From NCBI GenBank assembly GCA_002315945.1, contig DCIJ01000078.1, positions 1,884 through 65,883 on the forward strand: a stretch of 64,000 bases of DNA, written 5' to 3'. The position numbers and the translations under genes were made by a program. Under the pieces are notes generated by a model. The model did no database searches. It saw nothing but the letters and a program-made list of their open reading frames with translations, and was not told the DNA's origin. The DNA comes from Lachnospiraceae bacterium UBA1729 (GTDB taxonomy: Bacteria > Bacillota > Clostridia > Lachnospirales > Lachnospiraceae). Below, in pieces: positions 1-17,925 of this stretch (positions are counted from its first letter, which is position 1; every line of letters starts with the position of its first letter).

Positions 1-64
1 GGAACCCCGTCCCCCGGGTTCAAAAAAATGAACCTAGAACCCCGTCCCCCGGGTTCAACCCCGT
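1..64. repeat. REP/MITE-like intergenic repeat, family 1 (core GAACCCCGTCCCCC); two full units plus a partial third
   Basis: The 21-nt unit GAACCCCGTCCCCCGGGTTCA occurs at 2-22 and 37-57. Each unit is self-complementary (GAACCC..GGGTTC). The same core recurs near 11938, 12966, 15857 and 22630. Confidence 0.85.
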
Positions 65-1191
65 TTCTCGGGTTTAAATTTGTTGGCAGGATCACTTGAT
101 AGCCACTGTCTACCGTGAGCTGATCCCCATAATTCATCAAAGTTTATCTCATTTACAAAGCGCTCAACATATGATCTGAATTCTCTTCTGTCACCCTTTG
201 TCTTATCAGAATTAAAATGTGCAGCAAAATCTCTAAAATATGTATTATTCTGAAATGCTGAAATCTGCCAGAGATCTCTTGCATATCCCCACAGATTTGG
301 ATAATCAACCAGTCTGTGTTTTGTGGGTCCAAAATTCTGTGCATATGCAATATCCAGGCGCGCAAGTGTAACATATAATCTAACATCCGAATCAGTTACA
401 TAATCGCCAAACAGAAATCTCTTATCTGCCAGTCTGTTTTCAAGAATATCCATGGCTGCATAAAAATTATCATATGCATTCTGATATGCTCTAAGGCTCT
501 GAGCAAACTGGATTTTATACACTCCGTTATTAATATTATGGAAAAGCCAGTCATTTAGTTTATCAATTTCCTCGCGTAATTCCTCTGGATACAGGTCAGG
601 CGCCCCTGCCTTATGAAATGGCTTAAATTCCACCTCAAAATAGTTAGTGAGCCTGTGATAATCATTATTAACCACTTTTCCTGTTTCTATATCAATAAGT
701 GATGGAACTGTAGCCCTTCCAGCAAATCCAGGGATACTCTTTACATAGTGCTCAGCGAGAAATCTCGTTCCCAAAACTGGATCTCTGTGCTGCTCGTTGT
801 ATACAAATTCCCATCCGTATCCAATATCGTCTGATGAAAAACTAACCAGGTTTACACTGATAGCATCCTGAAGACCTAATAGCTCCCTTACAATAGAAGC
901 TCTGTTTGACCAGTTGCATCCCTTGGCCCATACTAATCTGTACTTTCCAGCTGCTACAGGATTCAATCCCTCAGTCTCACCAAATCCAGTAGTAAACAAG
1001 TTCTGTTGTCTGATAAAATTACCATTCGCATCTACTTCAGAATTCTGAATATTGGGTCTGGGACTAATATCCTTAACATCCTCAGCTGTAACTGGTACAA
1101 AATCAGTAGGTTCCGGATATTTTCCATCAGTTACAGATTTAAAATTTCTTGGCTCCGACTCAACCGGTGCCCCTACAAAACAGCATGACAT
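55..1191 (-). CDS. Xi-class glutathione S-transferase-like / glutathionyl-hydroquinone reductase family protein (YqjG/ECM4-like), paralog 1
   Basis: 378-aa ORF. WAKGCNWSNRASIVRELLGL matches the catalytic-Cys loop (CPWAHR in YqjG), followed by a GST-like C-terminal helical region. It is a clear paralog of 5621-6766. RBS GGAGGA lies upstream of the ATG. Confidence 0.75.
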   Translation of the reverse strand: MSCCFVGAPVESEPRNFKSVTDGKYPEPTDFVPVTAEDVKDISPRPNIQNSEVDANGNFIRQQNLFTTGFGETEGLNPVAAGKYRLVWAKGCNWSNRASIVRELLGLQDAISVNLVSFSSDDIGYGWEFVYNEQHRDPVLGTRFLAEHYVKSIPGFAGRATVPSLIDIETGKVVNNDYHRLTNYFEVEFKPFHKAGAPDLYPEELREEIDKLNDWLFHNINNGVYKIQFAQSLRAYQNAYDNFYAAMDILENRLADKRFLFGDYVTDSDVRLYVTLARLDIAYAQNFGPTKHRLVDYPNLWGYARDLWQISAFQNNTYFRDFAAHFNSDKTKGDRREFRSYVERFVNEINFDELWGSAHGRQWLSSDPANKFKPEKRG

Positions 1192-1224
1192 ATCTTTATC
1201 CTCCTACTACCATCTAATTTCAAA

Positions 1225-1261
1225 AATTCAAAACGACCATTAAATAATTCAAAACAACCAT
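1225..1261 (-). promoter_or_regulatory. Pair of 16-nt direct repeats (putative operator) upstream of GST-like paralog 1
   Basis: On the minus strand, ATGGTTGTTTTGAATT and ATGGTCGTTTTGAATT start 21 nt apart, in the 80-nt gap between the M20 stop and the GST start. Confidence 0.4.
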
Positions 1262-1271
1262 TATGTCGCTT

Positions 1272-2372
1272 TTATCTCGTAATTAACTCTTCAACCAATC
1301 TGGCTCCCTTTTCAAGATTTTCTATGGTTACATATTCTTCTGTAGAGTGGACATTCTCCATTCCACAGGATACTACGATTCCTTTTATTCCATGTGCATT
1401 AAACTGATGATTGTCGGCACCCCCCAGGGTTTGTGTAACAATGGGGTTGATTCCAAGATGCACACAGCCTTCCTTAAATCTTCTTATTACGGCTTCGTCC
1501 TCATCCACTTCATAGGCTTTAAAATGGATCTCATAGGAAAAATCAACTTTTGCCCCAGTCTCTCCTGTCGCATTTTCAAATCCCATAATTATCTGACTCA
1601 ATAATTCCAAGGCCTTTGAATGACTAAAGCTTCTGATTTCTCCAGCTACTGTACAGGCTTCTGAGACAATATTTGTGGCTTTTCCACCTGATATTGTACC
1701 TATGTTCACTGTTGATTCCTCATCAACCCGCCCCTGCTTAATGTTAGAAATTGCATAGGCTGCTGCCTGGATTGCATTTATCCCATCTTCGGGAGCAAAA
1801 CCGGCATGAGATGCTTTTCCCGTAATCTTAGCGTTAAATGAAATTAACGAAGGCGCCCTTCTGGCAGCTGTGCCCACATCCCCGCTCAAATCAAAGCAGT
1901 AGGCTTCTTTGGCCTTGATTTTTCCATAATCAAATGCCTGCGCACCCTTTGTATAAACTTCCTCTGCCACAGTAAAAAGTATCTCAACTGTCCGGTGAGT
2001 TTTCCCACTTTCCTTAACTCTTCTGATACCCTCGATAATTTCAACCACGCCGGCAATATCATCTGCGCCAAGAACTGTGGTTTTATCACTGAATATTACC
2101 TGGTCTCTGACAACAGGTTTCTTGCCTGTACCCGGACCAACTGTATCCAGATGTGCTGATAATAATATGGGGGGCCTTGAGGCATCTCCTTCAAACACAC
2201 CATATAGATTACCTGCATTCCCACCAATAGTGTTTGCCACATTATCCTCAACTGCTTCAATACCGATTTCATTAAGCAGCTTTACTACCTGGTCAGCTAC
2301 CTGGCGTTCTTGATAGCTTTCTGCATCAATACTTGTAAGACTGAGAAAATCCTCAACAATTCTTTCACTCAT
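1272..2372 (-). CDS. M20/M25/M40 family metallohydrolase (peptidase T-like / amidohydrolase)
   Basis: 366 aa. Motifs SAHLDTV, GADDIAG and TVAEE are typical M20 metal-binding motifs. It overlaps the upstream GNAT gene by 4 nt. Confidence 0.8.
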   Translation of the reverse strand: MSERIVEDFLSLTSIDAESYQERQVADQVVKLLNEIGIEAVEDNVANTIGGNAGNLYGVFEGDASRPPILLSAHLDTVGPGTGKKPVVRDQVIFSDKTTVLGADDIAGVVEIIEGIRRVKESGKTHRTVEILFTVAEEVYTKGAQAFDYGKIKAKEAYCFDLSGDVGTAARRAPSLISFNAKITGKASHAGFAPEDGINAIQAAAYAISNIKQGRVDEESTVNIGTISGGKATNIVSEACTVAGEIRSFSHSKALELLSQIIMGFENATGETGAKVDFSYEIHFKAYEVDEDEAVIRRFKEGCVHLGINPIVTQTLGGADNHQFNAHGIKGIVVSCGMENVHSTEEYVTIENLEKGARLVEELITR

Positions 2373-3361
2373 AATGTTTCATCCACAAATCTGTAACCTG
2401 CCGGTAAAATAAATCCTTTTGCAATTTCAGGTGGCATATCAGGATGTGCAGGATACAACAGTGCAGTCTTGTTTCTTCTAAAGCCCCTGCGATTATAAAA
2501 TCCCACTCCACCAGGATGGGTATTCAAAAAAATATTCTGCCCCTTCATCTGTTCAGCAAGTTTTGTAACAATATTCCATCCCAGATGAATGCCCTGGTAT
2601 CCGGGATCAATTGCCACATTCAGGATAAAGCCCTGGGTTTTACAATCCGACACTGCTCTTGCGCAGCCTATCAGTTTATCTTTATCAAATGCAAATTCAT
2701 AATACTGACTGTTTTCAAATGCCCCTCTTGTAACATTGATGTCCCGCTCATGCCCTCCAAAGGCAACCGACAGTATCTCATTTACCCTGTTATAGTCCAC
2801 ATTTATGGCACTATCAGTATATTTCACATCTTCGGCTGATATTGTCGCCTTGCTTTTTATCCCCTGGGGAAAATCCCCCACTACCGGATAAAATTCATTC
2901 TCGTATCTATATCCAAGTGGTAAAAAGTAAGTACTGTTACTAATACTGTCATCCAGTTCTGAGTCATCAGTTCCTGAGTAGGTAAAAGCATTTTTGGATC
3001 TGAAAAATCCCTGACCTTCAAAGACTGATATGGTTTCAGGACTTGTATATGCAAATATTTCATGCCCCTTAAACCTGTCTGTGACTTTATTTATCAGTGT
3101 TTCCCCTATGCCCTGATTTTCATATTCAGGAAAAATCCCATAGTCTGATATCAGTGTCCATTCATACTCATCCGACAATACTCTGATAAATGCTACAAGC
3201 TTTTCATCATCATATGCCCCCAAAACATAAGTACTATTGCCAATCAGACTCTTAACGGCCTCCTCATCAAATGACTTTTTTACCGAAGCCTGCGCCTCTA
3301 AAAAAGTACGTACCTGTGAGTAATCAGTATTCTCTTTTCCTTCCTTATATATAATATTCAT
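2369..3361 (-). CDS. GNAT family N-acetyltransferase (tandem GNAT domains)
   Basis: 330 aa with two acetyl-CoA binding-like segments (NQGIGETLINKV and YQGIHLGWNIVTKL). Confidence 0.7.
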   Translation of the reverse strand: MNIIYKEGKENTDYSQVRTFLEAQASVKKSFDEEAVKSLIGNSTYVLGAYDDEKLVAFIRVLSDEYEWTLISDYGIFPEYENQGIGETLINKVTDRFKGHEIFAYTSPETISVFEGQGFFRSKNAFTYSGTDDSELDDSISNSTYFLPLGYRYENEFYPVVGDFPQGIKSKATISAEDVKYTDSAINVDYNRVNEILSVAFGGHERDINVTRGAFENSQYYEFAFDKDKLIGCARAVSDCKTQGFILNVAIDPGYQGIHLGWNIVTKLAEQMKGQNIFLNTHPGGVGFYNRRGFRRNKTALLYPAHPDMPPEIAKGFILPAGYRFVDETL

Positions 3362-3405
3362 GGTTCCTAAACACTCTTCCTACCCTGAGCTCAATAACTT
3401 GCGTA

Positions 3406-4557
3406 TTATAATTTTGCATTATTTAGGGCCTGGTTCAGATCCTCAATAAGATCCTCTACATCTTCAATTCCGGGAGATACCCGGATAGTTCTCTCATATA
3501 TGCCAAGCTCCTTCTGAAAATCTGGTGAGAGGCTTCTATGAGAAGATGTGGCAGGATGTCCAATCAGTGACTCTACTCCTCCCAGGCTTGCTCCGTGAGT
3601 AAATATCTTTACCCCATCCAGGAATTTGGCCGGGCAGTATTCATCAGTTAATTCGAAAGCAATCATTGCCCCACCATTTTTTGCCTGAGATTTTTGTATT
3701 GCATATCCTGGATCAGATTTGAGTCCTGGATAGTGAACTGCCTTTACTGCCGGATGTCCCACAAGGAATTCAGCTATTTTTTCTGTATTTGCTACCTGTC
3801 TGTCCAGTCTGACTCCCAGGGTTTTAATGCTTCTGATTAGCAGATATGCATCAAAGGGCTGAATAATCCCACCTAACACCGCCTGAATCTTGTGGAGTCT
3901 TTCAGCTAACTGCTGGTCATTCACTGCCACGATTCCGGCTATGATATCACTATGTCCACCAAGATATTTTGTAGCACTTTCCACTACAATATCGACTCCA
4001 AGTTCAAGTGGCCTCTGGAGATATGGTGACATGAAGGTATTATCAAGAATGGTCAGGATATTGTGTCTCTTCGCAATAGCTACCACTGCTCTAATGTCTG
4101 TTACCTTTAATGTCGGATTGGCAGGGGTTTCAAAGAAAATGCCCTTCACATTGTCTGTGATTTTACCTTCAAGCTCTTCCAGACTGTCTGAATTGACTAT
4201 CTCATACTCAATTCCAAATCTTGAGAAAACATCCTTTAATACATCGTATGTTCCTCCATAGATAGCTCCTGAAACCAGAATCTTATCTCCATTATTAAAA
4301 AGACTGAAAGCTGCTGATGATGCAGCCATTCCGGATGCAAAGGCAAATGAAGCCTTTCCTCCTTCCAGTTTTGCAATAAGGGTTTCAAGAGCCTCTCTGG
4401 TAGGATTATTTCCACGGGCATATCCATACCCACTGTGGTCTTCAAAGCTTTTCTGAATAAAAGTCGATGTCAGATATACTGGAACATTGACCTCTCTCGC
4501 CTCAGTAATTTTATCATTAGCACCATGTATTAGTTGTGTATCGACTCTTTCACTCAT
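3406..4557 (-). CDS. Cys/Met-metabolism PLP-dependent enzyme (cystathionine beta/gamma-lyase or gamma-synthase family)
   Basis: 383 aa. NPTREALE, the SATKYLGGHSD PLP-lysine motif and SLGGVESL are typical of the trans-sulfuration family. Confidence 0.85.
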   Translation of the reverse strand: MSERVDTQLIHGANDKITEAREVNVPVYLTSTFIQKSFEDHSGYGYARGNNPTREALETLIAKLEGGKASFAFASGMAASSAAFSLFNNGDKILVSGAIYGGTYDVLKDVFSRFGIEYEIVNSDSLEELEGKITDNVKGIFFETPANPTLKVTDIRAVVAIAKRHNILTILDNTFMSPYLQRPLELGVDIVVESATKYLGGHSDIIAGIVAVNDQQLAERLHKIQAVLGGIIQPFDAYLLIRSIKTLGVRLDRQVANTEKIAEFLVGHPAVKAVHYPGLKSDPGYAIQKSQAKNGGAMIAFELTDEYCPAKFLDGVKIFTHGASLGGVESLIGHPATSSHRSLSPDFQKELGIYERTIRVSPGIEDVEDLIEDLNQALNNAKL

Positions 4558-4598
4558 AATATCGTCTCCCCCAAAATGCTTTGTTTTAAATATTTGTA

Positions 4599-5450
4599 TT
4601 ATTTTTTAACGCTTAGCGCATCAAGTGCAGGTGAATAATCACCGCCAAAGAATTCTTCATTAATCTTTTTTGAAGTACCATCAGCTATTACTTCATACAG
4701 TGCTTTGTTGATATCCTCAACAAGCTGTTCATTACCCTTTGATACTACAAAGAAGCTGTAATTTCCTTCGATATCATCGCTAAGAACGATTTTAGCTGTT
4801 GGAAGATCATATCCAAACTCAGGCACGTAGTAACCAAAATACATAGGTGCATCAATGATGGTAAAATCAGCTGCTCCTGATTGAACCTGATCAATCTGAA
4901 TGTTGAGATCCGCATCTGTATAAGTAATAGAAATTGCTTCATCAGGATGGGCTTCATTAAAGTTTTCAACTGCAGAAGTATATGTGATTGCTGTTGCACC
5001 AATATATGTAAGTCCTGCAAGGTCCTCAATATTTACCTCGTCTCCAAGAGCAATATTTGAATTGGCAACTACAATGAATTCATTTTCAAACATGGGATCT
5101 GTAAATAAGTATTTTTCCTGTCTCTCTGCATTTTTGCTGAGGTTGTTAACTCCCAACTGATACTTATCAGAATCAAGACCAGCAAATATTGAAGGGAAAT
5201 CTGTTACCTCCCACTCCAGCTCATACTGTGGAAGTCTGTCAAACACTGCTTCAATAAGCTTAATATTATGTCCTGTAAGATTATTGTCATCACCGTAAAA
5301 AGCAAAAGGTCTTGGCATAGCTGCTGTAACAGCATGAATTGTGACCACGTCACTTTCTTCCTTCTTTGCTCCACAGCCGGTAATCGTTCCAAGGATTAAT
5401 GCTCCCAATGCTGTAACTGCTACTAATTTTTTAAATAAATTTTTTTTCAT
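4599..5450 (-). CDS. Polar amino-acid (cystine-type) ABC transporter substrate-binding lipoprotein
   Basis: Signal peptide plus lipobox (LILGTITGCG). The start is placed at the ATG ending at 5450, which has GGAGGAGAAAG upstream. The ORF-track start at 5513 lacks an RBS. Confidence 0.8.
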   Translation of the reverse strand: MKKNLFKKLVAVTALGALILGTITGCGAKKEESDVVTIHAVTAAMPRPFAFYGDDNNLTGHNIKLIEAVFDRLPQYELEWEVTDFPSIFAGLDSDKYQLGVNNLSKNAERQEKYLFTDPMFENEFIVVANSNIALGDEVNIEDLAGLTYIGATAITYTSAVENFNEAHPDEAISITYTDADLNIQIDQVQSGAADFTIIDAPMYFGYYVPEFGYDLPTAKIVLSDDIEGNYSFFVVSKGNEQLVEDINKALYEVIADGTSKKINEEFFGGDYSPALDALSVKK

Positions 5451-5536
5451 ATCTTTCTCCTCCATCTTTCTCCTACCTTTTCGATAGGTTTTATCATAGT
5501 TGTATCTTATCACAGGTTTTCTTGTTAGAAAAATAC
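5451..5536 (-). promoter_or_regulatory. Promoter and leader module (copy 1), near-duplicate of 9245-9362
   Basis: On the minus strand: GTATTTTTCTAAC..TGTGATAAGATACA (extended -10, TAAGAT at 5504-5509)..AAAACCTATcgaaAAGGTAGG. The same ordered blocks occur upstream of cysK. Confidence 0.6.
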
Positions 5537-5581
5537 AAAAAAAATAGGACTGGCTATAAATTTTATTTATAGCAGCCCTAT
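5537..5581 (-). terminator. Rho-independent terminator after GST-like paralog 2
   Basis: Minus-strand hairpin TAGGGCTGCTATAAAT/ATTTATAGCCAGTCCTA followed by T8. Confidence 0.75.
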
Positions 5582-5620
5582 CCCCTCACGCTTCGCCAGC
5601 GTCCTTATGGTATGTACCTA

Positions 5621-6766
5621 TTATTTAACTGTATTCCAGTCAAACTGACTGATTTTTGAATAATACTGTTCAGGGGTCTCTCCCGCTGGATGTCTTAAGA
5701 ATTTTTCATCCGGAGTACGGCTCAAAAGCTTACGGTTTTGAGGCGCAGACCATATTGCTTCATAATCAATTTCATCAACAAATCTTGCATTGTATGAATT
5801 GAAGATTCCAGGTTTTTTCCTTTCACGTGAAAAATCACGGAAATATGTATTATTTTTAAACGCAGGAATTTCATAGAGATCTCTTGCATATGCCCAGATA
5901 TTTTTATGATCAATCATTCTCTTTTCAAGAGGCCCTAAGTTTCTGTAATAATATGAATCCCATCTTGCAAGTGTAACGTAAAATCTGATATCAGCATCAG
6001 TTACATAGTCACCAAAAAGGAATCTGTTAGTTTCAAGTCGTTTGTCAAGCTTGGCCATGGCAGAAAAGAAATCTTCATATGCTTCATTATATGCCACCAG
6101 GCTCTGGCCGAAGGCCATTCTGTAATGGGCATTATTAATATTGGGGAAAAGCCAGTCGTTTAATCTGTCTATTTCCTCACGCAGTGCAACAGGGTATAAA
6201 TCCGGAGCATCCGCAGGCTGATACTTTCTGAAATAAACCTCTAAATAGTTGGTTAATCTGTGATAATCATTATTTACCACCTTGTTAGTTGATTTATCCA
6301 CAAGAGCAGGCACAGTAGCTCTTCCTCTGTATTCTGCATCAGCATTTAAATATGCTTCACTTAAAAATTTGAGACCTGTCTGGGCATCAGTTCTATCAGG
6401 CTGATCTGTAAATCCCCAGCCATAGATATTTTTGATTCCCGTATGGTCAACAATAGATACACTAATGGCATCCTCTAAGCCAAGAAGCTCTCTGACGATA
6501 GAAGCTCTGTTAGACCAGTGGCAAAGCTTTGCCCAGAATAAATGGTACTTTCCACTTTCAGCAACCAGCTCTCCCTCCTTGGTTCCAAAGGGGGTTGTAA
6601 ATCTGTTGGGCTGACGAATAAAAGCCCCCCTGTGATCTATCTCTTCCTTAATTTCCTGAGGACGTGGTAACACGCCTCTTTCCCTGGCATCTTTTTCAGC
6701 CAGTTCATCACTATATATTGTCTCCTGAATATCCTGTACATCAGGACTAAATCCACAGCATCCCAT
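5621..6766 (-). CDS. Xi-class GST-like / glutathionyl-hydroquinone reductase family protein, paralog 2
   Basis: 381 aa. WAKLCHWSNRASIVRELLGL is present and the protein is collinear with 55-1191. It begins MGCC, where the paralog begins MSCC. Confidence 0.75.
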   Translation of the reverse strand: MGCCGFSPDVQDIQETIYSDELAEKDARERGVLPRPQEIKEEIDHRGAFIRQPNRFTTPFGTKEGELVAESGKYHLFWAKLCHWSNRASIVRELLGLEDAISVSIVDHTGIKNIYGWGFTDQPDRTDAQTGLKFLSEAYLNADAEYRGRATVPALVDKSTNKVVNNDYHRLTNYLEVYFRKYQPADAPDLYPVALREEIDRLNDWLFPNINNAHYRMAFGQSLVAYNEAYEDFFSAMAKLDKRLETNRFLFGDYVTDADIRFYVTLARWDSYYYRNLGPLEKRMIDHKNIWAYARDLYEIPAFKNNTYFRDFSRERKKPGIFNSYNARFVDEIDYEAIWSAPQNRKLLSRTPDEKFLRHPAGETPEQYYSKISQFDWNTVK

Positions 6767-6812
6767 ATTTTGCCTCCATTCACTGCTATTATCATATTTT
6801 TCAACGCATTTT

Positions 6813-7580
6813 TTAAATCACATAGTTATCAGGGTCCTCGAGCATATTGATATTGCGTAAAAATGCTTTCAGGCGTTCATTGCTTGGATCCTCAAATATT
6901 TCCTTCGGAGTACCATCAGCAACTATTTTTCCGCTTTCCAGAAAAATAATTCTGCTGGCTACAGACTTTACGAAGTTCATTTCATGTGTAACTAACAGGA
7001 TTGTATTTCCCTCCTTGGCAGCACGTCTTACGGTAAGCAGAACCTCGTTTACAAGCTCCGGGTCCAGAGCAGACGTTGGCTCGTCCATTAGTAACAGCTC
7101 TGGATCCATCGCCAGAGCCCTGGCAATAGCAACTCTTTGCTGCTGTCCTCCTGATAGATGTTTTGGGAAATGGTACAGTCTGTCACTCATTCCAACCTTT
7201 TCAAGTTCCAGAAGCGCTCTCTTTTTTGCTTCTTCCTTAGGAATTTTCTTAACAACAGTAAGTCCTTCCATAACATTTTCCAAAGCATTTTTGTTTTTAA
7301 ACAAATTAAACTGCTGAAAAACCATTTCTGTGTGATGTCTTAATTCCAGTTTTTCCTTAGCAGATTTGGATGTAAGATTATAGGTATTTCCATTTATTGT
7401 AATTTCGCCCTTTTCCGGTTTTTCTAACAGATTCAGGCATCTGAGAAGTGTTGATTTTCCAGTACCGGAAGGGCCGATAATTGCAACAACCTCCCCTTTT
7501 TCAATCTTTAGATCTACATTATCAAGGACCACATTGCTACCATATTTCTTACTTACTCCACGTATTTCTAACAGACTCAT
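6813..7580 (-). CDS. Polar amino-acid ABC transporter ATP-binding protein
   Basis: Walker A GPSGTGKST, signature LSGGQQQRVAIARA, Walker B LLLMDEPTSALD. Confidence 0.95.
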   Translation of the reverse strand: MSLLEIRGVSKKYGSNVVLDNVDLKIEKGEVVAIIGPSGTGKSTLLRCLNLLEKPEKGEITINGNTYNLTSKSAKEKLELRHHTEMVFQQFNLFKNKNALENVMEGLTVVKKIPKEEAKKRALLELEKVGMSDRLYHFPKHLSGGQQQRVAIARALAMDPELLLMDEPTSALDPELVNEVLLTVRRAAKEGNTILLVTHEMNFVKSVASRIIFLESGKIVADGTPKEIFEDPSNERLKAFLRNINMLEDPDNYVI

Positions 7581-8302
7581 GCCTCTACCACCTCCGGAGC
7601 TTCATCAGGAATACTGATTTTTTTCTCAATAAGCTTAAGTATTCTTTCAAAAATAAAAGTTATCACCCAGTATATGATTGCAAGTGAGCAGTACACTTCG
7701 AAATATCTGTAATTTTTACCTGCAAGAATCTTACCAGCTGCTGTAATTTCCACTACAGAACATGTAAATGCCAGGGATGTACCTTTTATCAGTGCAATTA
7801 GTGAGTTGCCCAGTGGAAGGAGGGCAACGGTTGAAGCCTGGGGGATAATCACCCTTTTTAGCACCTGCCATCCAGACATTCCCATTGATTTTGCAGCTTC
7901 AAGCTGCCCCTTATCTACAGATAAAATTGCTGATCTGATTGTCTCGGAATCAAATGCTGACTGGTTTAGTCCCAAGGCCACCATAGCAAATACGATTCCT
8001 GGAATTCCATTGATATCATAATCTGTCCCGTAATAGTAATTGATATATTTAAGAGCTATGGGAATTCCAAAGTATGTGATATATAACTGCACAATTATTG
8101 GTGTACCACGCATGATTGATACAAAAGCTACTGCCAGCTGACTAAGTACCGGGATCTTATTAATTCTGATCACTGCGATGATTAATCCCAGGACCAGTCC
8201 TATAAATAGTGCTATCAGTGTTAAAAATAGTGTTGTAGGCAGATATTTGAGCAAATCCGGTATTGCCGTAAATACCAATGCTCCATCAAATAATTTTGCC
8301 AT
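7577..8302 (-). CDS. Polar amino-acid ABC transporter permease
   Basis: 241-aa multi-TM protein in the His/Glu/Gln/Arg-opine permease style. It overlaps the ATPase gene by 4 nt. Confidence 0.9.
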   Translation of the reverse strand: MAKLFDGALVFTAIPDLLKYLPTTLFLTLIALFIGLVLGLIIAVIRINKIPVLSQLAVAFVSIMRGTPIIVQLYITYFGIPIALKYINYYYGTDYDINGIPGIVFAMVALGLNQSAFDSETIRSAILSVDKGQLEAAKSMGMSGWQVLKRVIIPQASTVALLPLGNSLIALIKGTSLAFTCSVVEITAAGKILAGKNYRYFEVYCSLAIIYWVITFIFERILKLIEKKISIPDEAPEVVEA

Positions 8303-8314
8303 GATTAACCTCTC

Positions 8315-9244
8315 TTATTCATATAAGTCGCCTGACAGATAATGATCACCATTATCAGCAAAGATAACTACAATATTTTTTCCTTTGTTCTCTACTCTCT
8401 TTGCCACCTGGGTAGCTGCATGTAGTGCTGCTCCGGCTGAAATACCAATGGAAAAGCCTTCAATCTTTGGAAGTTCTCTTGCAGCTTTGTAAGCCTGCTC
8501 ATCTGTCACATCAATGACCTCATTAAAGAGACTTACATCTGTAACTGGAGGAATTGCGCCTCCACCGATACCCTGAATCTTATGAGGTCCCGGCTCTCCA
8601 CCATTTAGTACTGCACTTCCGGTTGGCTCAACTGCAATTATCTGAACATCTGGATTCTTTTCACGCAGGAATTTTCCAACACCACTTATGGTTCCGCCTG
8701 TACCTGCTGCTGCCACAAAAATATCAACCTTACCATCCGTATCCTCCCATATTTCAGGACCTGTTGTCTTGTAGTGTGCACCAGGATTATTTGGATTGCC
8801 TCCCTGACCTATGACAACCGAATTCTCAGTCTGCTCTAAAAGCTCCTGTGCCTTGGCACCTGCACCTGCCATATTCAGCTCACCTGGAGTTAAGTAAAGT
8901 TCTGCGCCAAAGGATTTTAGAAGAGTTCTTCTTTCTATTGATACATTATCAGGCATAGCTATTTTTACCTTGTATCCAAGGGCTGCACCAATGGCTGCCA
9001 AACCTATTCCTGTGTTTCCACTTGTTCCTTCTATAATAGTGCCGCCCGGCTTGAGTTCGCCGCTTTCTTCTTTTGCACGGATTATGTTGTAAGCGATTCT
9101 ATCCTTTACGCTTCCGTTAGGATTGAAGTATTCAAGCTTTGCTAATAATTTTGCTTCCAGCTGTTCTTTTTTTTCATAATTTGTAAGTTCCACCAAAGGT
9201 GTCTTTCCTATTAACTCCAAAATACTCTGATAAATCTTTGCCAT
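8315..9244 (-). CDS. cysK: Cysteine synthase A (O-acetylserine sulfhydrylase)
   Basis: 309 aa. PLP lysine in NPNGSVKDR, GTSGNTGIGLA and the GTGGTISG loop. Confidence 0.92.
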   Translation of the reverse strand: MAKIYQSILELIGKTPLVELTNYEKKEQLEAKLLAKLEYFNPNGSVKDRIAYNIIRAKEESGELKPGGTIIEGTSGNTGIGLAAIGAALGYKVKIAMPDNVSIERRTLLKSFGAELYLTPGELNMAGAGAKAQELLEQTENSVVIGQGGNPNNPGAHYKTTGPEIWEDTDGKVDIFVAAAGTGGTISGVGKFLREKNPDVQIIAVEPTGSAVLNGGEPGPHKIQGIGGGAIPPVTDVSLFNEVIDVTDEQAYKAARELPKIEGFSIGISAGAALHAATQVAKRVENKGKNIVVIFADNGDHYLSGDLYE

Positions 9245-9362
9245 AATTTTTTCCTCCCTCTGTTAACATGATATTAATCTGCGTCTTTTTAACGCCTACC
9301 TTAGTAATAGGTTTTGTCTGTAAATGTATCTTATCATTACCATTCACGTTTGAATAATACGC
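9245..9362 (-). promoter_or_regulatory. Promoter and leader module (copy 2), near-duplicate of 5451-5536
   Basis: On the minus strand: GTATTATTCAAAC..ATGATAAGATACA (TAAGAT at 9328-9333)..AAAACCTATtactAAGGTAGG, then RBS GAGGGAGG. Confidence 0.6.
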
Positions 9363-9404
9363 AAAAAATAAGACTGGCTATAAATACAGCTTATACCCAG
9401 TCTT
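9363..9404 (-). terminator. Rho-independent terminator after the patB-like gene
   Basis: Minus-strand hairpin AAGACTGGGTATAAG..TTATAGCCAGTCTT followed by a T-run. The 3' arm (TTTATAGCCAGTC) resembles the terminator at 5537-5581. Confidence 0.75.
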
Positions 9405-9437
9405 TTGATATTTTTCTTCATTTACCATGAAACTATA

Positions 9438-10646
9438 TTAAATTGTCGTTTTTTCCTCAAAAGCATCCCTGATTCTATCCAGTGCCTCTGTAAGAACTGC
9501 CCTTGGGCAGGCTACATTAATCCGTTGGAATCCTTTTCCCACATCTCCAAAAATTGATCCACTGTCAAGCCACAGTCCAGCCTTGTGAATTATGAGATCA
9601 TCTATCTGTCTGTCACTGAGTCCATATTTACCAAAATCAAGCCATATCATGTAGGTTCCCTCAGGCTTTTTAAATACAACCTTTGGAAGATGTGTCTTTA
9701 TATATTCTTCAGCAAAATCAATATTTGCTTTAATATACCTGCTTACAGCTTCATACCATTCCTGTCCATGATCATATGCCGCCTGACTGGCAATGATGCC
9801 GGCAGCATTCAGCTGGCTGTAGCCAGAGGCATTATATGCTTTTCTGAACTTAGTATATATTTCCCTGTTAGGAATAAAAATGTTAGAAACCTGCAGCCCT
9901 GCAATATTAAAAGTCTTGCTGGGAGAGGTCGCTGTAATTGAAATTTTAGCATATGCCTCATCAAGCTTGGCAAACACCTGGTGATTGCCAGACCAGACAA
10001 AATCTGCGTGTATCTCATCGGAAAATACTATAACACCATGCTTAACACAGATATCCCCTATTTTTATTAATTCTTCTTTTGTCCATACTCTTCCAACAGG
10101 GTTATGAGGATTACACAAAAGAAAGAGTTTAACTTTGTTTTCAACTATTTTTCTTTCAAAATCTTCAAAATCAATTGTGTAATATCCGTTTCCATCATTT
10201 ACCAGATCACTGCTGATAAGTGTTCTTTCATTATCATTGATAACTTCGCTGAAAGGATAATATACCGGCTGCTGGATAAGTATTGCATCACCCTTCTTTG
10301 TAACTGCCCTCACAGCAGTTGCAATGGCAAATACCACTCCCGGAGTCTTGTGAAACCAGCTCTTGTGCACATCCCACCCATAATGATTATTTATCCATCT
10401 GTGAACACTCTCAAAATAATCGTCATCCACTTCTGTATATCCATAGATAGCATGTTGCGCCTGCTTAACAAGGGCATCTTCTATATATGAGGACGTCTTA
10501 AAGTCCATGTCGGCAACCCACAACGGAAGCACTCCCTCCGGGAGTCCCCTCTTTTTTGCAAAATCATATTTGAGGCATTTAGTGCCTTTTCTATCAATTA
10601 AGCTGTCAAAATTCAGATTTCTTTCTGCCATATTACTCACCAACAC
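9438..10646 (-). CDS. patB: MalY/PatB-family PLP-dependent C-S lyase (cystathionine beta-lyase type, aminotransferase class I/II)
   Basis: 402 aa. Starts with NFDSLIDRKGTKCLKYD, and SPSKTFNIAG contains the PLP lysine. Confidence 0.8.
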   Translation of the reverse strand: MLVSNMAERNLNFDSLIDRKGTKCLKYDFAKKRGLPEGVLPLWVADMDFKTSSYIEDALVKQAQHAIYGYTEVDDDYFESVHRWINNHYGWDVHKSWFHKTPGVVFAIATAVRAVTKKGDAILIQQPVYYPFSEVINDNERTLISSDLVNDGNGYYTIDFEDFERKIVENKVKLFLLCNPHNPVGRVWTKEELIKIGDICVKHGVIVFSDEIHADFVWSGNHQVFAKLDEAYAKISITATSPSKTFNIAGLQVSNIFIPNREIYTKFRKAYNASGYSQLNAAGIIASQAAYDHGQEWYEAVSRYIKANIDFAEEYIKTHLPKVVFKKPEGTYMIWLDFGKYGLSDRQIDDLIIHKAGLWLDSGSIFGDVGKGFQRINVACPRAVLTEALDRIRDAFEEKTTI

Positions 10647-10658
10647 TTCTTTTTTATT

Positions 10659-11828
10659 CTATCCATTAAAGGCCTGGTCTAAATCGCTAATCAGGTCATC
10701 AATATTTTCTATTCCAACTGACATCCTCAGTGTTCTCTCTGTCAGACCACTTTTTTCAAGCTGCTCCTTTGGTACATCTGCATGGGTCTGTGTAATGGGA
10801 TATGTTAGCAGGGACTCAGTTCCTCCAAGACTTTCAGCATATTGGACCAGTCTGATTTTTTCTAATATTCTCCTGACACTTTCCACACTGTCTACATCAA
10901 ATGCCAGCATTGCACCGGCACCCCTTGCCTGTTTTTTATTAAGCTCATATCCGGGATGTTCCTGAAGCCCCGGATAGATAACCCTTTTAACAATTTTCTG
11001 ATTTTTTAACCAGTTTGCAAGCTTCAAAGCATTCTCCTGCGCCCTGTCCAGTCTTACAGCCAGTGTCTGAATGCCTCTGATTACGAGCCAGCTGTCAAAG
11101 GGAGACAGATTTGCACCTACAGTTTTATAAGCAAACCTGAGTTTTTCTGAAATAGCTTCATCCCTCACAATTGTGAATCCGGATAAGGTATCATTGTGTC
11201 CTGAAAGATATTTTGTTCCACTGTGAATAACAATATCTGCCCCTAAATCCAGAGGATTCTGAAGATATGGAGACATAAATGTATTGTCCACTATGAGAAT
11301 AGCATTATTCTCGTGGGCTATTTTTGCTGTTTTTTCAATATCCGTGATATTCATTAGTGGATTCGTGGGAGTCTCGATAAAGAGTGCTTTTGTATTGCTC
11401 TTAATATATTTCGTAACATCCTCTTTACTGAAATCAATATAGCTGAATTCAATTCCGTTCTTTTCACTTATAGTTCTAAAAAGTCGTGTTGTTCCACCAT
11501 AGATATCCACATCAACAATTAAATGGTCCCCTGAATTAAACAGTTCCATTGTATTGGAAATTGCAGCCATTCCGCAGGAAAACGCGATTGCGTCTGTTCC
11601 ATGCTCAAGAGATGCTACTATTTTTTCCAATTGCTCCCGTGTAGGATTCTGAACCCTGGTATAGTCATAACCTGTACTCTGTCCCAGACCAGGATGCGCA
11701 AATGTAGCTGTCTGATAGATTGGCACGCTGATTGCCCCAAATCGCGCCTCCTTATTATCACGCTCCAAATGTATACATCGACTTTCTATTGCTAACGATT
11801 TACTCATATTTGTCTCCCCTTTTTCCAC
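10659..11828 (-). CDS. Cys/Met-metabolism PLP-dependent enzyme (cystathionine gamma-synthase / gamma-lyase / methionine gamma-lyase family)
   Basis: 389 aa. NPTREQLE, SGTKYLSGHND and SLGGTESL. Second member of this family in the cluster. Confidence 0.85.
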   Translation of the reverse strand: MEKGETNMSKSLAIESRCIHLERDNKEARFGAISVPIYQTATFAHPGLGQSTGYDYTRVQNPTREQLEKIVASLEHGTDAIAFSCGMAAISNTMELFNSGDHLIVDVDIYGGTTRLFRTISEKNGIEFSYIDFSKEDVTKYIKSNTKALFIETPTNPLMNITDIEKTAKIAHENNAILIVDNTFMSPYLQNPLDLGADIVIHSGTKYLSGHNDTLSGFTIVRDEAISEKLRFAYKTVGANLSPFDSWLVIRGIQTLAVRLDRAQENALKLANWLKNQKIVKRVIYPGLQEHPGYELNKKQARGAGAMLAFDVDSVESVRRILEKIRLVQYAESLGGTESLLTYPITQTHADVPKEQLEKSGLTERTLRMSVGIENIDDLISDLDQAFNG

Positions 11829-11937
11829 TGACCCGTCAATATTATCGTCTCCGGATAAATTAGCAATAGTATATATAATTCAGACCACTTTGGATAATAT
11901 GCTCTTGTTATGATTCGCTATAACCTGGGCCTATAAA

Positions 11938-12005
11938 TGAACCCGGGGGACGGGGTTGGGGGGTCAAAAAAGTGAACCCGGGGGACGGGGTTCTAGGTTC
12001 ATTTT
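11938..12005. repeat. REP-like repeat family 1, two units in opposite orientation to 1-64
   Basis: TGAACCCGGGGGACGGGGTT at 11938-11957 and 11973-11993. Positions 11973-12005 are the exact reverse complement of 25-57 (33 nt). Confidence 0.9.
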
Positions 12006-12850
12006 GCTGAAAAAGATAATATGGTATACACAGTTGCGTCCCCGATGGCATTACCATAAGGATTCTCTAATTTACAGTATCCACCGCTTCTTTCTAAATC
12101 AAAGGATGGGGTGCAGTATACAACTTCAGCCATCACTGATTTGAAATTAATTTCATGTGTTACACGATCAACCTCAACTCTTAAATCAACACGCCTGTCT
12201 GCAATCTGCCCGCAATCATTTACGTTAGCCAGCAGGTTATGAAATACTGGGAAATCTCCCCGTAAAGTGTAAACATACACATCCAATGTATTATATGGAT
12301 TATTCCAGATATAAAGTGTCGCATCATCAAAATTAGTAGGCATCCCATTTGAAGCCAGTGTTCCAAGCAAGACCTCATAAGAATTTTGACATTTTCTTAC
12401 ATCTAATCCATAGGTTTTGTTGTAATCAATCGCTGTGCCCCCGGCATTGCTATATCCAGAAGGATATCTAATTGCACTTGCACTTTTACCTGCTGTAATA
12501 TTTGAAACAATTCTTTCAACAAAGTTCTCTGTATCGAGACCTGACCATCTGTTTGTCGTAAACTGCTCCACTTTAAATGTCTTTTTTTCTTTATATTTGT
12601 TCATAGCGACCGCTAAAATCGGATTTGTAAAATCATGAAATGAATATGGATCGTACATATTAATTGCAGTGGCATGTGCCAGTTCATCTTGAGAATTTTG
12701 TCCTAATTGTCCTACAGTTTCCGCTGCAAAAACCGTAATGGGTGCAAACAGAATCATATGCATGAAAGCTACTGCCACAACAAACCTCAACGTAGTAAAG
12801 ACTACGGTCCTTTTATTTTTTACCTGTCTTCCAATAATTGTGTATGCCAT
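11999..12850 (-). CDS. Hypothetical secreted or membrane-anchored protein
   Basis: 283-aa ORF with an N-terminal hydrophobic segment (VVAVAFMHMILFAPITVFAAE). I recognise no family. It is flanked on both sides by family-1 repeats, and its stop codon lies inside one. Confidence 0.55.
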   Translation of the reverse strand: MAYTIIGRQVKNKRTVVFTTLRFVVAVAFMHMILFAPITVFAAETVGQLGQNSQDELAHATAINMYDPYSFHDFTNPILAVAMNKYKEKKTFKVEQFTTNRWSGLDTENFVERIVSNITAGKSASAIRYPSGYSNAGGTAIDYNKTYGLDVRKCQNSYEVLLGTLASNGMPTNFDDATLYIWNNPYNTLDVYVYTLRGDFPVFHNLLANVNDCGQIADRRVDLRVEVDRVTHEINFKSVMAEVVYCTPSFDLERSGGYCKLENPYGNAIGDATVYTILSFSAK

Positions 12851-12965
12851 TGTATCTCCCTCTCTTTATGTCCATCGTTCTATTTACTATTACCCAATAA
12901 AAAAGTCGGGCAAAAGTGCCAACCAGGCTTTATTTTATCACAATCTATTATTCTTGCCGAGATAA

Positions 12966-13040
12966 TGACCCCAGGGGACGGGGTTCTAGGGTCAAAAAAG
13001 TGAACCACTAACCCCGTCCCCCTGGTTCACCCTGGTTCAC
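12966..13040. repeat. REP-like repeat family 1, inverted pair plus 10-nt tandem tail
   Basis: CCAGGGGACGGGGTT (12970-12984) pairs with AACCCCGTCCCCCTGG (13010-13025). CCCTGGTTCA is then repeated twice. Confidence 0.85.
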
Positions 13041-14816
13041 ATATATGGTGTATTGCTCATCGGTGACTTCATATAATGGGAGGAATATAGTTTCCCTATT
13101 GCCAGAGTATGCTCTGTAGCTTGACTGCTTCCATGGATAGGCCTCATAGGTATGCTCTACAAATGGGGTTAAGGCTTCATCAATTGACCTTCCTTCCAAA
13201 GAGAACTCTTTTCCTTCTTCTCCAACGGCCGCCAATGCGATTGGTCCGTCCAAAATTGCACATATACCCTTATTATCAGAAAGCGACTTGGTGGACAGGC
13301 TTGCCACAAAGCCGACAGCCAGATCTTTGTTCTCGAATTTTTCCTTTATCACGTAATAATCTGAGCTTACAGTATGCAGCACACCATCAATTAGTATTTT
13401 TCCATCTGACCAGGAAGGTATTCTGATTTGTAAGGTAATCTCTTCCTCGGAATTTACTTTTATTAAAAAATTCCATCTGGACTTAGCCCTGTGCCCATTT
13501 TCTTCTCCAAACAGTGCCCCCGAACAGTAGTCCATATTTACCTCAGTAGAGACTGACACCTTTTTCCCATTCATTTCAAAGGCAGCTGATGAGTTAATAA
13601 ACTGATCAATTGACACCAGTTTTTTTTCTTCATCCTTATAATATATCAGTGATGGATAAATAGTCTGGGCCTGGACCATGGTACCATAGCAGCACCAGAA
13701 GGATCTTGTTCTGGTTCCCCATACCTTTCTGCTTCCAGGTCTCATTGGGAGAAAATATGTGGGCATTCCGGTAAATTTATTCTGCTGAACAAGGAAAGCA
13801 TTATACAGCGTTCTTTCTATATAATCACTGTATTCCCGTTCGCCTGTAAAACGATACAGATACTCTGCCAGTCTGACCATGTTGTACATAGTACAAAACT
13901 CCTGAGTTCTGTCGCTCATGGACTGATAGAACTGATGGGGTGGAATCCAGAATTCTCCGGCATTTTGTCCACCAGTCGCATAGGCTTCTCTATCATATAC
14001 AGCCTGCTTCCAGAATTCTTTTGTGATTTCCAACCATCTAGTATCGTTAGTCACTTCATACATGCAGGCTGCCCCATGGGCTTCAGGAATTGATGCATTT
14101 GTATGATTATCAGTCAGGGCATCTTCCCCCTTTTCAAGAAGAGCAAAATCCTTGTATATGCTATAGGCGTTAGCCAGCTTCAGATATTTCGCATCCTTTG
14201 TAAGCCCGTACAATCTTGCCCAGATTTCCAGCATTCCTCCTGCTTCACCCTTGACAACAACCCCTGGCTTGTCAGCAAGACTGTCAACCCAGTCAATATA
14301 CCAGTCAGCCGCATTATTTAAAATCTCCAGCGCCACTTCATAGCCTGTCCACTCATAGGTATCCAGCAGCCCCATCAGCGTCTTGTGCAGGGTATACTGG
14401 GGCGACCAGATGTAATCACCGTTTTCAAGACGTCTGAAATATTTTTCTGGAATTGAACCAATCCATTTGCCACCATTATTTTCCTGACATATTTTTAACT
14501 CATCAACAATGGTAAAAAGCTTGGCCTCCAGCTCCCTATCTTTGTTAGAAGCAGACAGATGAGCAGCCGCTGACATCCAGTGCCCCAGAAAATGTCCCCT
14601 CAGCTGGCAGGTTGGAGATTCCCAGCCCCAATGGACATAGGCATCCTCCGGATCCCCGATAAACTGCAGATTTGGAAGCATAATGCCTGCCTCCAGATAG
14701 AAATTTTGCAAAAGGGCTCTGTTATCCAGTTCCATTAGATAGTCCCTGTTTATTGCTTCTCTTTCTTTGAACAAACCGTTGGTTAATCTTACTTCTGAAA
14801 TTTTTAGTGCCTCCAT
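13008..14816 (-). CDS. GH127-like (DUF1680) beta-L-arabinofuranosidase family glycoside hydrolase
   Basis: Starts with LFKEREAINRDYLMELDNRALLQNFYLEAG and carries the WCCYGT Cys pair. The start is set at the ATG ending at 14816, preceded by GAGGAGGAAAAAT. The last 10 codons (VNQGEPGGRG) are repeat-encoded. Confidence 0.75.
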   Translation of the reverse strand: MEALKISEVRLTNGLFKEREAINRDYLMELDNRALLQNFYLEAGIMLPNLQFIGDPEDAYVHWGWESPTCQLRGHFLGHWMSAAAHLSASNKDRELEAKLFTIVDELKICQENNGGKWIGSIPEKYFRRLENGDYIWSPQYTLHKTLMGLLDTYEWTGYEVALEILNNAADWYIDWVDSLADKPGVVVKGEAGGMLEIWARLYGLTKDAKYLKLANAYSIYKDFALLEKGEDALTDNHTNASIPEAHGAACMYEVTNDTRWLEITKEFWKQAVYDREAYATGGQNAGEFWIPPHQFYQSMSDRTQEFCTMYNMVRLAEYLYRFTGEREYSDYIERTLYNAFLVQQNKFTGMPTYFLPMRPGSRKVWGTRTRSFWCCYGTMVQAQTIYPSLIYYKDEEKKLVSIDQFINSSAAFEMNGKKVSVSTEVNMDYCSGALFGEENGHRAKSRWNFLIKVNSEEEITLQIRIPSWSDGKILIDGVLHTVSSDYYVIKEKFENKDLAVGFVASLSTKSLSDNKGICAILDGPIALAAVGEEGKEFSLEGRSIDEALTPFVEHTYEAYPWKQSSYRAYSGNRETIFLPLYEVTDEQYTIYVNQGEPGGRG

Positions 14817-15046
14817 ATTTTTCCTCCTCATGGTTTCTATCAACAAATACTTTTTAATTTTTGAAAAAAATAGTAATTTTTATATTACATGTAATATAAT
14901 CTAATAATAGCCTGTAAAAAATGGCATTTTTTAATTATTATATGTAAAAAAGTCGTCTGAACTAAATACTATGCGTTAAATATGCGTATTGAAAATATAT
15001 TCTAAAAAAAGTTCTAAATTTGAGTGATAATTTGGAGGATATTATT

Positions 15047-15859: not shown

Positions 15860-15988
15860 ACCAGGGGGACGGGGTTCTAGGGTCATTTTTGTGAGCTAGG
15901 GGGACGGGGTTGGGGGTTCATTTTTTGAAAAATGAACCCCCAACCCCGTCCCCCTAGCTCACCCTAGCTCACCCTAGCTCACTTTTGC
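15857..15988. repeat. REP-like family 1 cluster with a 27-bp perfect palindrome; probable bidirectional terminator
   Basis: GGGGGACGGGGTTGGGGGTTCATTTTT / AAAAATGAACCCCCAACCCCGTCCCCC (15898-15955). One extra unit at 15857-15877 and a 3x tandem ACCCTAGCTC. It lies between convergent genes. Confidence 0.85.
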
Positions 15989-17864: not shown

Positions 17865-17874
17865 GCTGTTCTCC

Positions 17875-17904
17875 CAAAATGAGCCTGGTCATACGCAGGC
17901 TCAT
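17875..17904 (-). promoter_or_regulatory. Intra-operon stem-loop (partial terminator or stabiliser) between the transglutaminase and deacylase genes
   Basis: Minus-strand hairpin AATGAGCCTG-cgtatgac-CAGGCTCATT followed by TTGGGAGAA, which contains the next RBS. Confidence 0.5.
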
Positions 17905-17925
17905 TAATTTTTCATTATTTTAATT

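Follow-up and report, generated by a model that had tools for sequence, protein, structure and literature searches.

Organization of the sulfur amino acid gene block

The analyzed window is a stretch of 64,000 nucleotides from Lachnospiraceae bacterium UBA1729 (GenBank assembly GCA_002315945.1), covering positions 1884-65883 of contig DCIJ01000078.1 in a metagenome-assembled genome (MAG) of 2.03 Mb and 69.8% completeness, whose nearest relatives are rumen Lachnospiraceae MAGs. At 55-11828 of the window we identified a block of 11 genes, all on the minus strand, in which enzymes of sulfur amino acid metabolism and an ATP-binding cassette (ABC) importer are interspersed with an acetyltransferase, a metallohydrolase, and two glutathione S-transferase (GST)-like proteins of the Xi class, here called paralogs A and B. 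An earlier note, made from the DNA letters and their translations, had described this block and suggested that it specifies an anaerobic salvage pathway for S-conjugates, in which the GST-like proteins replace the monooxygenase step known from Bacillus subtilis. The gene list given there was borne out by an open reading frame (ORF) check of the coordinates and by Pfam and NCBIfam assignments. The features of the block, starting from its upstream end, are:

10659..11828, minus strand: Cys/Met-metabolism pyridoxal phosphate (PLP) enzyme 1, of cystathionine gamma-synthase or beta- or gamma-lyase type (PF01053, 485 bits)
9438..10646, minus strand: PatB-family C-S (cystathionine/cysteine-conjugate beta-) lyase (TIGR04350, 454 bits, cut-off 340)
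9245..9437, minus strand: intergenic terminator hairpin and promoter-like cassette (GTATTATTCAAAC ... TGATAAGATACA) before cysK, from sequence reading
8315..9244, minus strand: O-acetylserine sulfhydrylase CysK, extra copy (TIGR01139, 382 bits, cut-off 351)
7577..8302, minus strand: polar-amino-acid ABC permease (ORF; orthologs in related loci called BPD_transp_1)
6813..7580, minus strand: ABC ATPase of the same importer as the permease (ORF with Walker motifs)
5621..6766, minus strand: Xi-class GST-like paralog B, with loop CHWSNR, arm MGCCG, and NNDY for NES (GST_C_2/GST_N_2)
5451..5620, minus strand: second terminator and promoter-like cassette, before the binding-protein gene (same ordered blocks as 9245-9437)
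4599..5450, minus strand: lipoprotein substrate-binding protein (SBP) of the SBP_bac_3 type (PF00497; lipobox ITGC)
3406..4557, minus strand: Cys/Met-metabolism PLP enzyme 2 (PF01053, 463 bits)
2369..3361, minus strand: acetyltransferase with two GNAT domains (PF00583, PF13673, and PF13508, two stretches each)
1272..2372, minus strand: M20B PepT-like metallohydrolase, candidate deacylase (TIGR01883, 309 bits, cut-off 274)
55..1191, minus strand: Xi-class GST-like paralog A, with loop CNWSNR, arm MSCC, and NNDY for NES (GST_C_2/GST_N_2)

The shared strand agrees with the treatment of these genes as a single block in the earlier note. However, terminator-plus-promoter cassettes before both cysK and the binding-protein gene mean that it is not a simple single operon. 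For PLP enzyme 1, the ribosome-binding site places the likely true start at the ATG at 11807, and its best NCBIfam models all score under their equivalog cut-offs. PLP enzymes 1 and 2 share 43% identity. A second cysK is located on another contig (C53) of the source genome, and CysE is encoded elsewhere in the genome. None of the 11 products contains a luciferase-like monooxygenase or lyase-1 domain, and the block thus encodes neither a YxeK nor a 2SL counterpart, the breakdown enzymes of the yxe-type loci discussed below.

The GST-like proteins form a divergent branch of the Xi class

Paralogs A and B share 53% identity across 333 residues. Alignment to YqjG of Escherichia coli, together with start-site reading, confirmed that they are Xi-class GST-like proteins with CNWSNR and CHWSNR loops and Met-x-Cys-Cys N-termini, as the earlier note had described them; the MSCC and MGCC starts are both preceded by good Shine-Dalgarno sites. 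Phmmer searches of the PDB matched Xi entries only (8.5e-65 to 3e-31). The nearest solved relatives (~1e-64) come from Gordonia and Corynebacterium (4pts, 8.5e-65; 3m1g, 1.3e-63), and YqjG itself (3r3e) follows at 1.7e-43. An AlphaFold model of paralog A was obtained with a predicted local distance difference test score (pLDDT) of 87 and a predicted template modeling score of 0.88. In a Foldseek search with this model, ranks 1-32 are all Xi-class (2e-27 to 3e-18), with other classes appearing from 6e-9.

The catalytic cysteine is invariant in the family defined by the CxWSNR loop, which retains Cys63, Trp65, and Arg68 of YqjG (whose numbering is used here), and the cis-proline motif TVP, Tyr195, and Tyr253 are likewise invariant. 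The proline following the catalytic cysteine and a tyrosine triad (Tyr195, Tyr253, and Tyr296) are said to be invariant in Xi GSTs (PMC6345682). In the family described here, this proline is replaced by Asn (paralog A) or His (paralog B), and by Ala or Gln in relatives, so that the Xi loop motif is not preserved. The position of Tyr296 is occupied by Phe in paralog A and Arg in paralog B and is variable across the clade. The C-terminal HxxINPxGI segment of YqjG is also replaced, and the G-site N-E-S reads N-D-Y in both paralogs and throughout the clade. Among representatives of the wider family at 50% identity, canonical YqjG-like proteins keep N-E-S, whereas the CxWSNR clade and actinobacterial-looking relatives have N-D-[YFHV].

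Maximum-likelihood analysis places the CxWSNR proteins in a clade of their own (support 100/100) on a long stem. Clostridial paralogs combining CPWAHR with NNDY lie near YqjG and the Corynebacterium glutamicum protein MstX. Paralogs A and B fall in two old subclades of the CxWSNR clade, that of paralog B (11 rows, support 100/98) consisting mostly of members with N-terminal Cys arms. A fourth GST-like subfamily, with the loop CPH[AS][HN]K in which both the Trp and the Arg are replaced, was observed in related loci (designated by L-numbers) at L003:11221-12150, L044:14078-15094, and L054:~4310-5188; the L044 member adjoins an Opp/Dpp-type ABC system and an M20 gene. In addition, proteins of ~655 aa were found in which a CPWAHR and a CHWSNR unit are fused in tandem.

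Terminal cysteines

The GST-like family is poor in cysteine (0.53%), yet cysteines cluster within the terminal 12-14 residues in 41 of the 120 closest homologues. All N-extended forms begin with M-x(1-5)-[AC]-C, as in MSCC, MGCC, MSAC, MANAC, and MSGCGC. Forms of ~620-634 aa (P0029-P0097 type; L059:9001-10905 and L062:9001-10902) contain a full Xi domain and a second, GST_C-only domain, and forms of ~630 aa often end in Cys-rich GCCG-like tails such as SCGCCCG, CGCAC (CGCACSLGSK), and GGCCQ. The tails are spread over separate subclades, at either the N- or the C-terminal end. One 632-aa member with an SCGCCCG tail (L060:2718-5310), whose 90% cluster holds 2942 sequences, adjoins an LMWPc (ArsC-like) gene and a Tn916-type integrase/Xis, with the importer absent nearby.

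Residues 1-20 of the paralog A model have pLDDT values <50, and the N-terminal arm is predicted to be disordered. Cysteine-bearing tails are known from thioredoxin reductase (GCUG/SCCS), the C-terminus of ribonucleotide reductase R1, and the C-terminal Cys-Cys of MerA. As in these enzymes, vicinal or closely spaced cysteines are here found on a flexible end of a redox enzyme, in a family otherwise poor in cysteine. The likeness makes the terminal cysteines candidate resolving thiols that may replace the second glutathione. Unlike in thioredoxin reductase, R1, and MerA, disulfide exchange with the active-site cysteine is in this case proposed by analogy.

Thiol-synthesis genes

Glutamate-cysteine ligase (PF04262), GGT (PF01019), BshC (PF10079), and MshD were not found in the source genome or in four relatives of 99-100% completeness. 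As the source genome is incomplete, the thiol-synthesis argument leans mainly on these four near-complete relatives, and it concerns synthesis genes rather than possible uptake of glutathione. A search for gshA, gshB, and gshF detected no glutathione synthesis genes in the source genome. Two matches to the gshB model PF02955 were rejected as weak ATP-grasp hits, this model being unspecific and matching also in B. subtilis. Among 18 genomes bearing the GST-like family, one holds a gshA-like ORF (gshF model TIGR01435). A match to the GCS2 family (carboxylate-amine ligase) was observed in one of the five genomes (G180:C3:228492-228881), ~3.5 kb from the CysK-GST pair of L044. The combination of a G-site N-E-S with a cellular supply of glutathione (GSH), by which the Xi class is recognized, was thus not found for paralogs A and B.

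Bacillithiol was ruled out as the thiol, as BshC was not found. The MshD model TIGR03448 gave weak GNAT matches only (<=27 bits compared with a cut-off of 163), and the double GNAT protein of the block was rejected as an analogue of this mycothiol synthase, having no MshD-level match, with most relatives encoding a single-domain GNAT. No glutathione reductase scored above the cut-off in the five genomes, four of which are also without a siroheme sulfite reductase.

The importer and the M20 hydrolase

The substrate-binding protein starts at the ATG at 5450 and not at the GTG at 5513, which gives it a lipoprotein signal peptide. With the binding protein, the permease, and the ATPase located within 4599-8302, the cluster contains an SBP_bac_3-type importer like that of the scm/yxe loci of B. 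subtilis. Orthologs of the permease (56-83% identical) and of the ATPase (59-84%) adjoin GST-like genes in related loci. The best PDB matches of the binding protein are 4eq9 (3e-33) and 4c0r (5.8e-32), compared with 2.2e-22 for the cystine-binding YtmK (2o1m). Both 4eq9 and 4c0r are glutathione-binding GshT proteins (PMC5287219; bioRxiv 10.1101/2024.02.13.580100). At the positions contacting glutathione disulfide (GSSG), Ser71 and Thr119 are kept, Val115 is replaced by Ala, and Thr12 by Met. The M20 protein scores 64.5 bits on the M20D amidohydrolase model TIGR01891 (cut-off 153.75) and is instead PepT-like M20B, with 3gb0 and 3rza as its best PDB matches.

These matches bear on the possibility that GSH, GSSG, or glutathione conjugates from the host or from plants are imported, deglutathionylated by the GST-like enzymes, and broken down as peptides with the help of the M20 hydrolase. 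The binding protein has its best solved relatives in GshT and shares the NN(I/L)S and Thr positions that contact GSSG, the M20 protein falls in a tripeptidase-like clade, and Xi-class cysteine GSTs (Cys-GSTs) act on glutathione conjugates. Furthermore, the GST-like gene of L044 is accompanied by an M20 gene and by an ABC system of the Opp/Dpp type, which in some bacteria imports glutathione (PMC10355420). Nevertheless, we consider this explanation unlikely. The Glu-Ser that binds the gamma-glutamyl group is replaced by Asp-Tyr throughout the clade, whereas canonical GSH-using Xi enzymes keep N-E-S; GGT and glutathione reductase were not found in the five genomes, the cluster contains no gamma-glutamyl-cleaving enzyme, and the GNAT protein would be left without a role.

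Conservation of the gene cluster

The GST-like family was identified in 29 other loci, from 17 other Lachnospiraceae genera, one Oscillospiraceae MAG, and metagenomic contigs including a Lacrimispora-like one; counts over these loci are floors, as several are cut by contig ends. Its distribution is patchy, with 17 positive genera among 300 other Lachnospiraceae genera sampled and one positive genome among ~386 sampled from non-Lachnospiraceae Clostridia (E <= 1e-60). The co-conservation with sulfur genes on which the earlier note had staked its proposal holds, as an uptake ABC system lies beside the GST-like genes in 24 of the 29 loci, in most cases with a permease and ATPase 56-84% identical to those of the window. 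Thirteen loci contain an M20 gene that is likewise PepT-like, and one has an Amidohydro_1 gene in its place; a single- or double-domain GNAT occurs in 11, Cys_Met_Meta_PP in seven, and CysK in six. Because the source genome holds only three polar-amino-acid permease loci in 2.03 Mb, such adjacency is expected by chance in ~2%, and the shuffled gene order among relatives points to selection on the association rather than to inherited synteny.

The order is GST-SBP-GNAT-permease-ATPase-GST-M20 in L059 and LysR-PLP-M20-GNAT-GST-GST-SBP-permease-ATPase in L061, while L056 contains genes for LysR, PLP, PatB-like, CysK, GST, SBP, permease, ATPase, GNAT, a GST-GST fusion, and M20. Locus L062 has the GST-SBP-GNAT-permease-ATPase-GST module unchanged apart from an Amidohydro_1 gene (L062:5382-6641) in the position of M20, which suggests that a deacylase activity is needed and not a specific peptidase. 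Clusters contain up to 3-5 GST paralogs, and some metagenomic gene calls appear to join a GST to a binding-protein or ATPase domain.

The conservation argues strongly against the notion that the GST-like proteins are ordinary detoxifying reductases of hydroquinones or quinone adducts, placed among sulfur genes by chance and unrelated to cysteine supply. Their clear Xi-class fold and catalytic cysteine would suit such a function, as would the few members outside sulfur contexts (L045 and L052) and the L060 member beside the ArsC-like gene. We nevertheless regard it as very improbable, given the adjacency to uptake systems in shuffled orders far above the chance level, the apparent fusions to importer domains, and the lack of detected synthesis genes for glutathione as co-substrate.

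Not all of the associated importers are of the same type. One locus (L044) has the Opp/Dpp-type system, and three (L042, L048, and L053) combine an NMT1/sulfonate-type ABC system with a GST flanked by two CysK genes, in the order NMT1-type lipoprotein SBP, CysK, GST with N-terminal Cys arm, CysK, ATPase, permease; two of these loci also contain M20. A thioredoxin-reductase-like gene follows the cluster in L048 only. The three CysK-GST-CysK loci fit at least as well with glutaredoxin-like enzymes that reduce disulfides of cysteine, either imported or made by CysK (cystine, mixed disulfides, persulfides, or S-sulfocysteine), in which case GNAT and M20 would play an accessory part. Thiol-transferase activity on disulfides is strong in Xi enzymes, MstX among them, the terminal cysteine pairs are suited to disulfide exchange, the thioredoxin-reductase-like gene of L048 would be in place, and thioredoxins and glutaredoxins are known to reduce S-sulfocysteine in E. 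coli (PMC3528435). Such a function would, however, leave the recurrent pair of GNAT and deacylase, and the replacement of M20 by Amidohydro_1, without a role, and 3-5 GST paralogs per cluster exceed the need of one disulfide substrate. The rumen is strongly reducing, and cystine is expected to be scarce there. Sulfite released from S-sulfocysteine would be unusable in the four of five genomes lacking siroheme sulfite reductase, and the CysK copies flanking the GST both score as CysK and not CysM, on which ground an S-sulfocysteine synthase beside the GST was rejected. Altogether, disulfide reduction appears a rather unlikely function of the cluster.

A proposed pathway for salvage of S-linked cysteine derivatives

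The interpretation that we favor, with a probability somewhat short of even, is that the block salvages S-linked cysteine derivatives by oxygen-independent import, N-acetylation, thiol-transferase cleavage, and deacetylation. It is preferred because it gives every recurrent gene a role. The steps, all of which we infer, would be as follows. The ABC system with its binding protein would import an S-linked cysteine derivative, either a thioether adduct (quinone, phenacyl-type, or succino) or a mixed disulfide, and the GNAT protein would acetylate its amino group. The invariant cysteine of the CxWSNR loop would then attack the sulfur of the substrate, free the non-cysteine part, and leave an enzyme-S-S-(N-acetyl)cysteine. 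As the organism is taken to be without glutathione, this mixed disulfide may be resolved by the vicinal cysteines of the flexible N-terminal arm (MSCC or MGCC), by thioredoxin, or by a free thiol. The M20 hydrolase would take off the acetyl group, and CysK, PatB, and the two trans-sulfuration enzymes would channel the recovered sulfur to cysteine and methionine.

Comparative genomics, the scm/yxe-like layout, the lack of detected thiol-synthesis genes, the invariant catalytic cysteine, and the existence of yxe loci with neither YxeK nor 2SL support the earlier proposal of anaerobic S-conjugate salvage with a GST in place of the monooxygenase, while the type of M20 hydrolase, the tyrosine triad, and the type of binding protein do not. 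Several observations weigh against the salvage pathway. The earlier note drew a parallel to the M20 deacetylases of B. subtilis. N-acetylcysteine deacetylation has been shown for the M20D type (ScmP, YhaA, and YtnL of B. subtilis), unlike the M20B PepT-like protein of the cluster, which as judged from its sequence is at best analogous to a ScmP/YxeP-type deacetylase. Two of the three triad tyrosines are kept and the third is lost, and the importer labeled cystine-type in the note has a binding protein closer to the glutathione-binding GshT than to YtmK. GNAT, a candidate counterpart of the acetyltransferases YxeL/SnaA, is absent from more than half of the 29 loci, some of which are truncated contigs. 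The duplicated CysK and the sulfonate- or oligopeptide-type importers of some relatives would equally fit disulfides, S-sulfocysteine, or glutathione conjugates as substrates. Many clusters (e.g., L036 and L037) are without a tail-bearing GST, and the idea of a resolving tail is therefore not general. Finally, Cys-GSTs are known to act on aryl or alpha-keto thioethers and on disulfides, and reductive cleavage of a succino thioether would require a poor leaving group.

Within the favored salvage pathway, we tentatively suggest, with considerable doubt, that the CxWSNR proteins are a glutathione-independent, self-resolving branch of Xi GSTs whose tail cysteines pass the disulfide on to thioredoxin, and that they act, beside monooxygenase and lyase, as a third type of breakdown enzyme of scm/yxe-like loci, reductive and independent of oxygen, in anaerobes of the gut and rumen. 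No description of this GST-like family or of the cluster, including in Lachnospiraceae, was found in the searchable literature. The cluster departs from known systems in two respects: its Xi GSTs belong to a divergent branch that is apparently independent of glutathione, and its layout is that of an scm/yxe-like locus in which the candidate for the breakdown enzyme is a new one. Salvage of S-modified cysteines has so far been worked out in aerobes, with monooxygenases, and in a lyase variant, and loci with neither enzyme have been reported. A compact conserved module of strict gut and rumen anaerobes with a thiol-transferase is a concrete candidate for the missing chemistry. It would also represent a natural case of a GST fold working without glutathione, and it bears on how anaerobes lacking glutathione handle thiol adducts of quinones, fumarate, and other electrophiles abundant in plant digesta and bile. 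With 11 genes and two soluble enzymes, each having one active-site cysteine and one cysteine pair, the system is small and open to direct testing.

Regulation and flanking elements

The cassettes at 9245-9437 and 5451-5620 are duplicates with the block order GTATTWTTCWAAC ... TGATAAGATACA ... AAACCTAT. The exact -10-like block TGATAAGATACA occurs at two sites only in the 2.03-Mb assembly, both inside the cluster, and a genome-wide regulon for the cassette was therefore rejected. A LysR-type regulator gene is located on the same contig at 933-1838, on the minus strand, just outside the window and immediately downstream of paralog A. The matching genes of L056 are headed by a LysR gene whose product is 43% identical to this regulator, and a further LysR gene stands at the head of L061; the LysR downstream of paralog A probably controls the block. 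A possible operator is formed by two 15-nt direct repeats, ATGGTTGTTTTGAAT and ATGGTCGTTTTGAAT, at 1226-1261 before paralog A, whose starts are 21 nt apart and which are absent from the rest of the assembly. Riboswitch or T-box control was rejected, as an Rfam scan of positions 1-20000 gave nothing relevant, only hairpin look-alikes at a repetitive extragenic palindrome (REP) at 15857-15988.

The REP-like GC-rich hairpin GAACCCCGTCCCCCGGGTTC is present in seven copies in the window, with none expected by chance, and brackets the sulfur block at the following positions:

2..56, strand not assigned: REP-like hairpin, two copies, at the downstream edge of the block (repeat count)
11939..11993, strand not assigned: REP-like hairpin, two copies, at the upstream edge of the block, one copy of which is in addition scored as a terminator for the gene before it

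Further sites of this hairpin are located at 12967-13028 and 15858-15877. A gene resembling REP-associated tyrosine transposases (NF047646, 71 bits, below the cut-off of 80) was found ~1 kb beyond the window start, at ~100-868 of the contig. Between the REP clusters upstream of the sulfur block, a 283-aa ORF at 11999-12850 has an N-terminal hydrophobic segment and no Pfam or NCBIfam match.

Comparison with known systems

The paralogs share the fold of the Xi-class enzymes YqjG, PcpF, and yeast ECM4, including the Cys, Trp, and Arg of the loop, the cis-Pro TVP, Tyr195, and Tyr253. They differ in the Pro after the catalytic Cys, the third Tyr, the G-site Glu-Ser, and the HxxINPxGI segment, in having terminal Cys tails, and in coming from a host without detected glutathione synthesis genes. 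With MstX (NCgl1216) of C. glutamicum and its actinobacterial relatives they have N-D-[FY] in place of N-E-S in common. MstX uses mycothiol, the reactive part of which is N-acetylcysteine, and thus illustrates that Xi enzymes can use a thiol other than glutathione (PMC6815410). However, MstX, a redox enzyme induced by stress, has retained CPWA and is encoded outside any cluster of importer, acetylase, and deacylase, whereas paralogs A and B lack the CPWA motif and MshD was not found in their host; N-D-[FY] is the only common feature among those tested, which included a mycothiol-producing host.

The binding protein is most similar to GshT of the streptococcal GshT-TcyBC glutathione importer and, as in that system, is coupled to a cystine-type permease and ATPase. 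The identity to GshT is ~35-40%, and Met takes the place of the GSSG contact Thr12. In streptococci, GSSG is reduced by a glutathione reductase, an enzyme that was not found in the source genome.

The closest parallel to the block as a whole is the scm (yxeK-Q) locus of B. subtilis for S-(2-succino)cysteine, together with the ytmI operon for S-alkylcysteines, in which a GNAT, an SBP_bac_3-type importer, a metal-dependent amidohydrolase, and a breakdown enzyme are likewise clustered (PMC9706529, PMC12757645). The sulfur amino acid context, a nearby LysR-type regulator, and the logic of acetylation, breakdown, and deacetylation are also shared (PMC9706529, PMC12757645). Unlike in B. subtilis, where an O2-dependent flavin mononucleotide monooxygenase (YxeK/ScmK) occupies the slot of the breakdown enzyme, this slot here holds one to five Xi-class GST-like proteins, the hydrolase is M20B PepT-like (or Amidohydro_1) and not the M20D ScmP, and the host is a strict anaerobe whose block includes CysK, PatB, and trans-sulfuration genes. 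A yxe locus has been defined by the clustering of at least three of YxeK, YxeL, YxeMNO, YxeP, and YxeQ, and of 102 such loci, 11 lack both YxeK and the S-(2-succino) lyase 2SL (PMC9706529). The yxe loci with 2SL, as in Enterococcus italicus and Dickeya dadantii, provide a precedent for an oxygen-independent swap of the breakdown enzyme. While 2SL is of the class I fumarate-lyase type and eliminates fumarate, a Cys-GST would cleave reductively via a mixed disulfide and need a reductant. The layouts of L059, L061, and L056 parallel YxeK-L-MNO-P of B. subtilis (PMC9706529), with a GST located where the monooxygenase or lyase sits.

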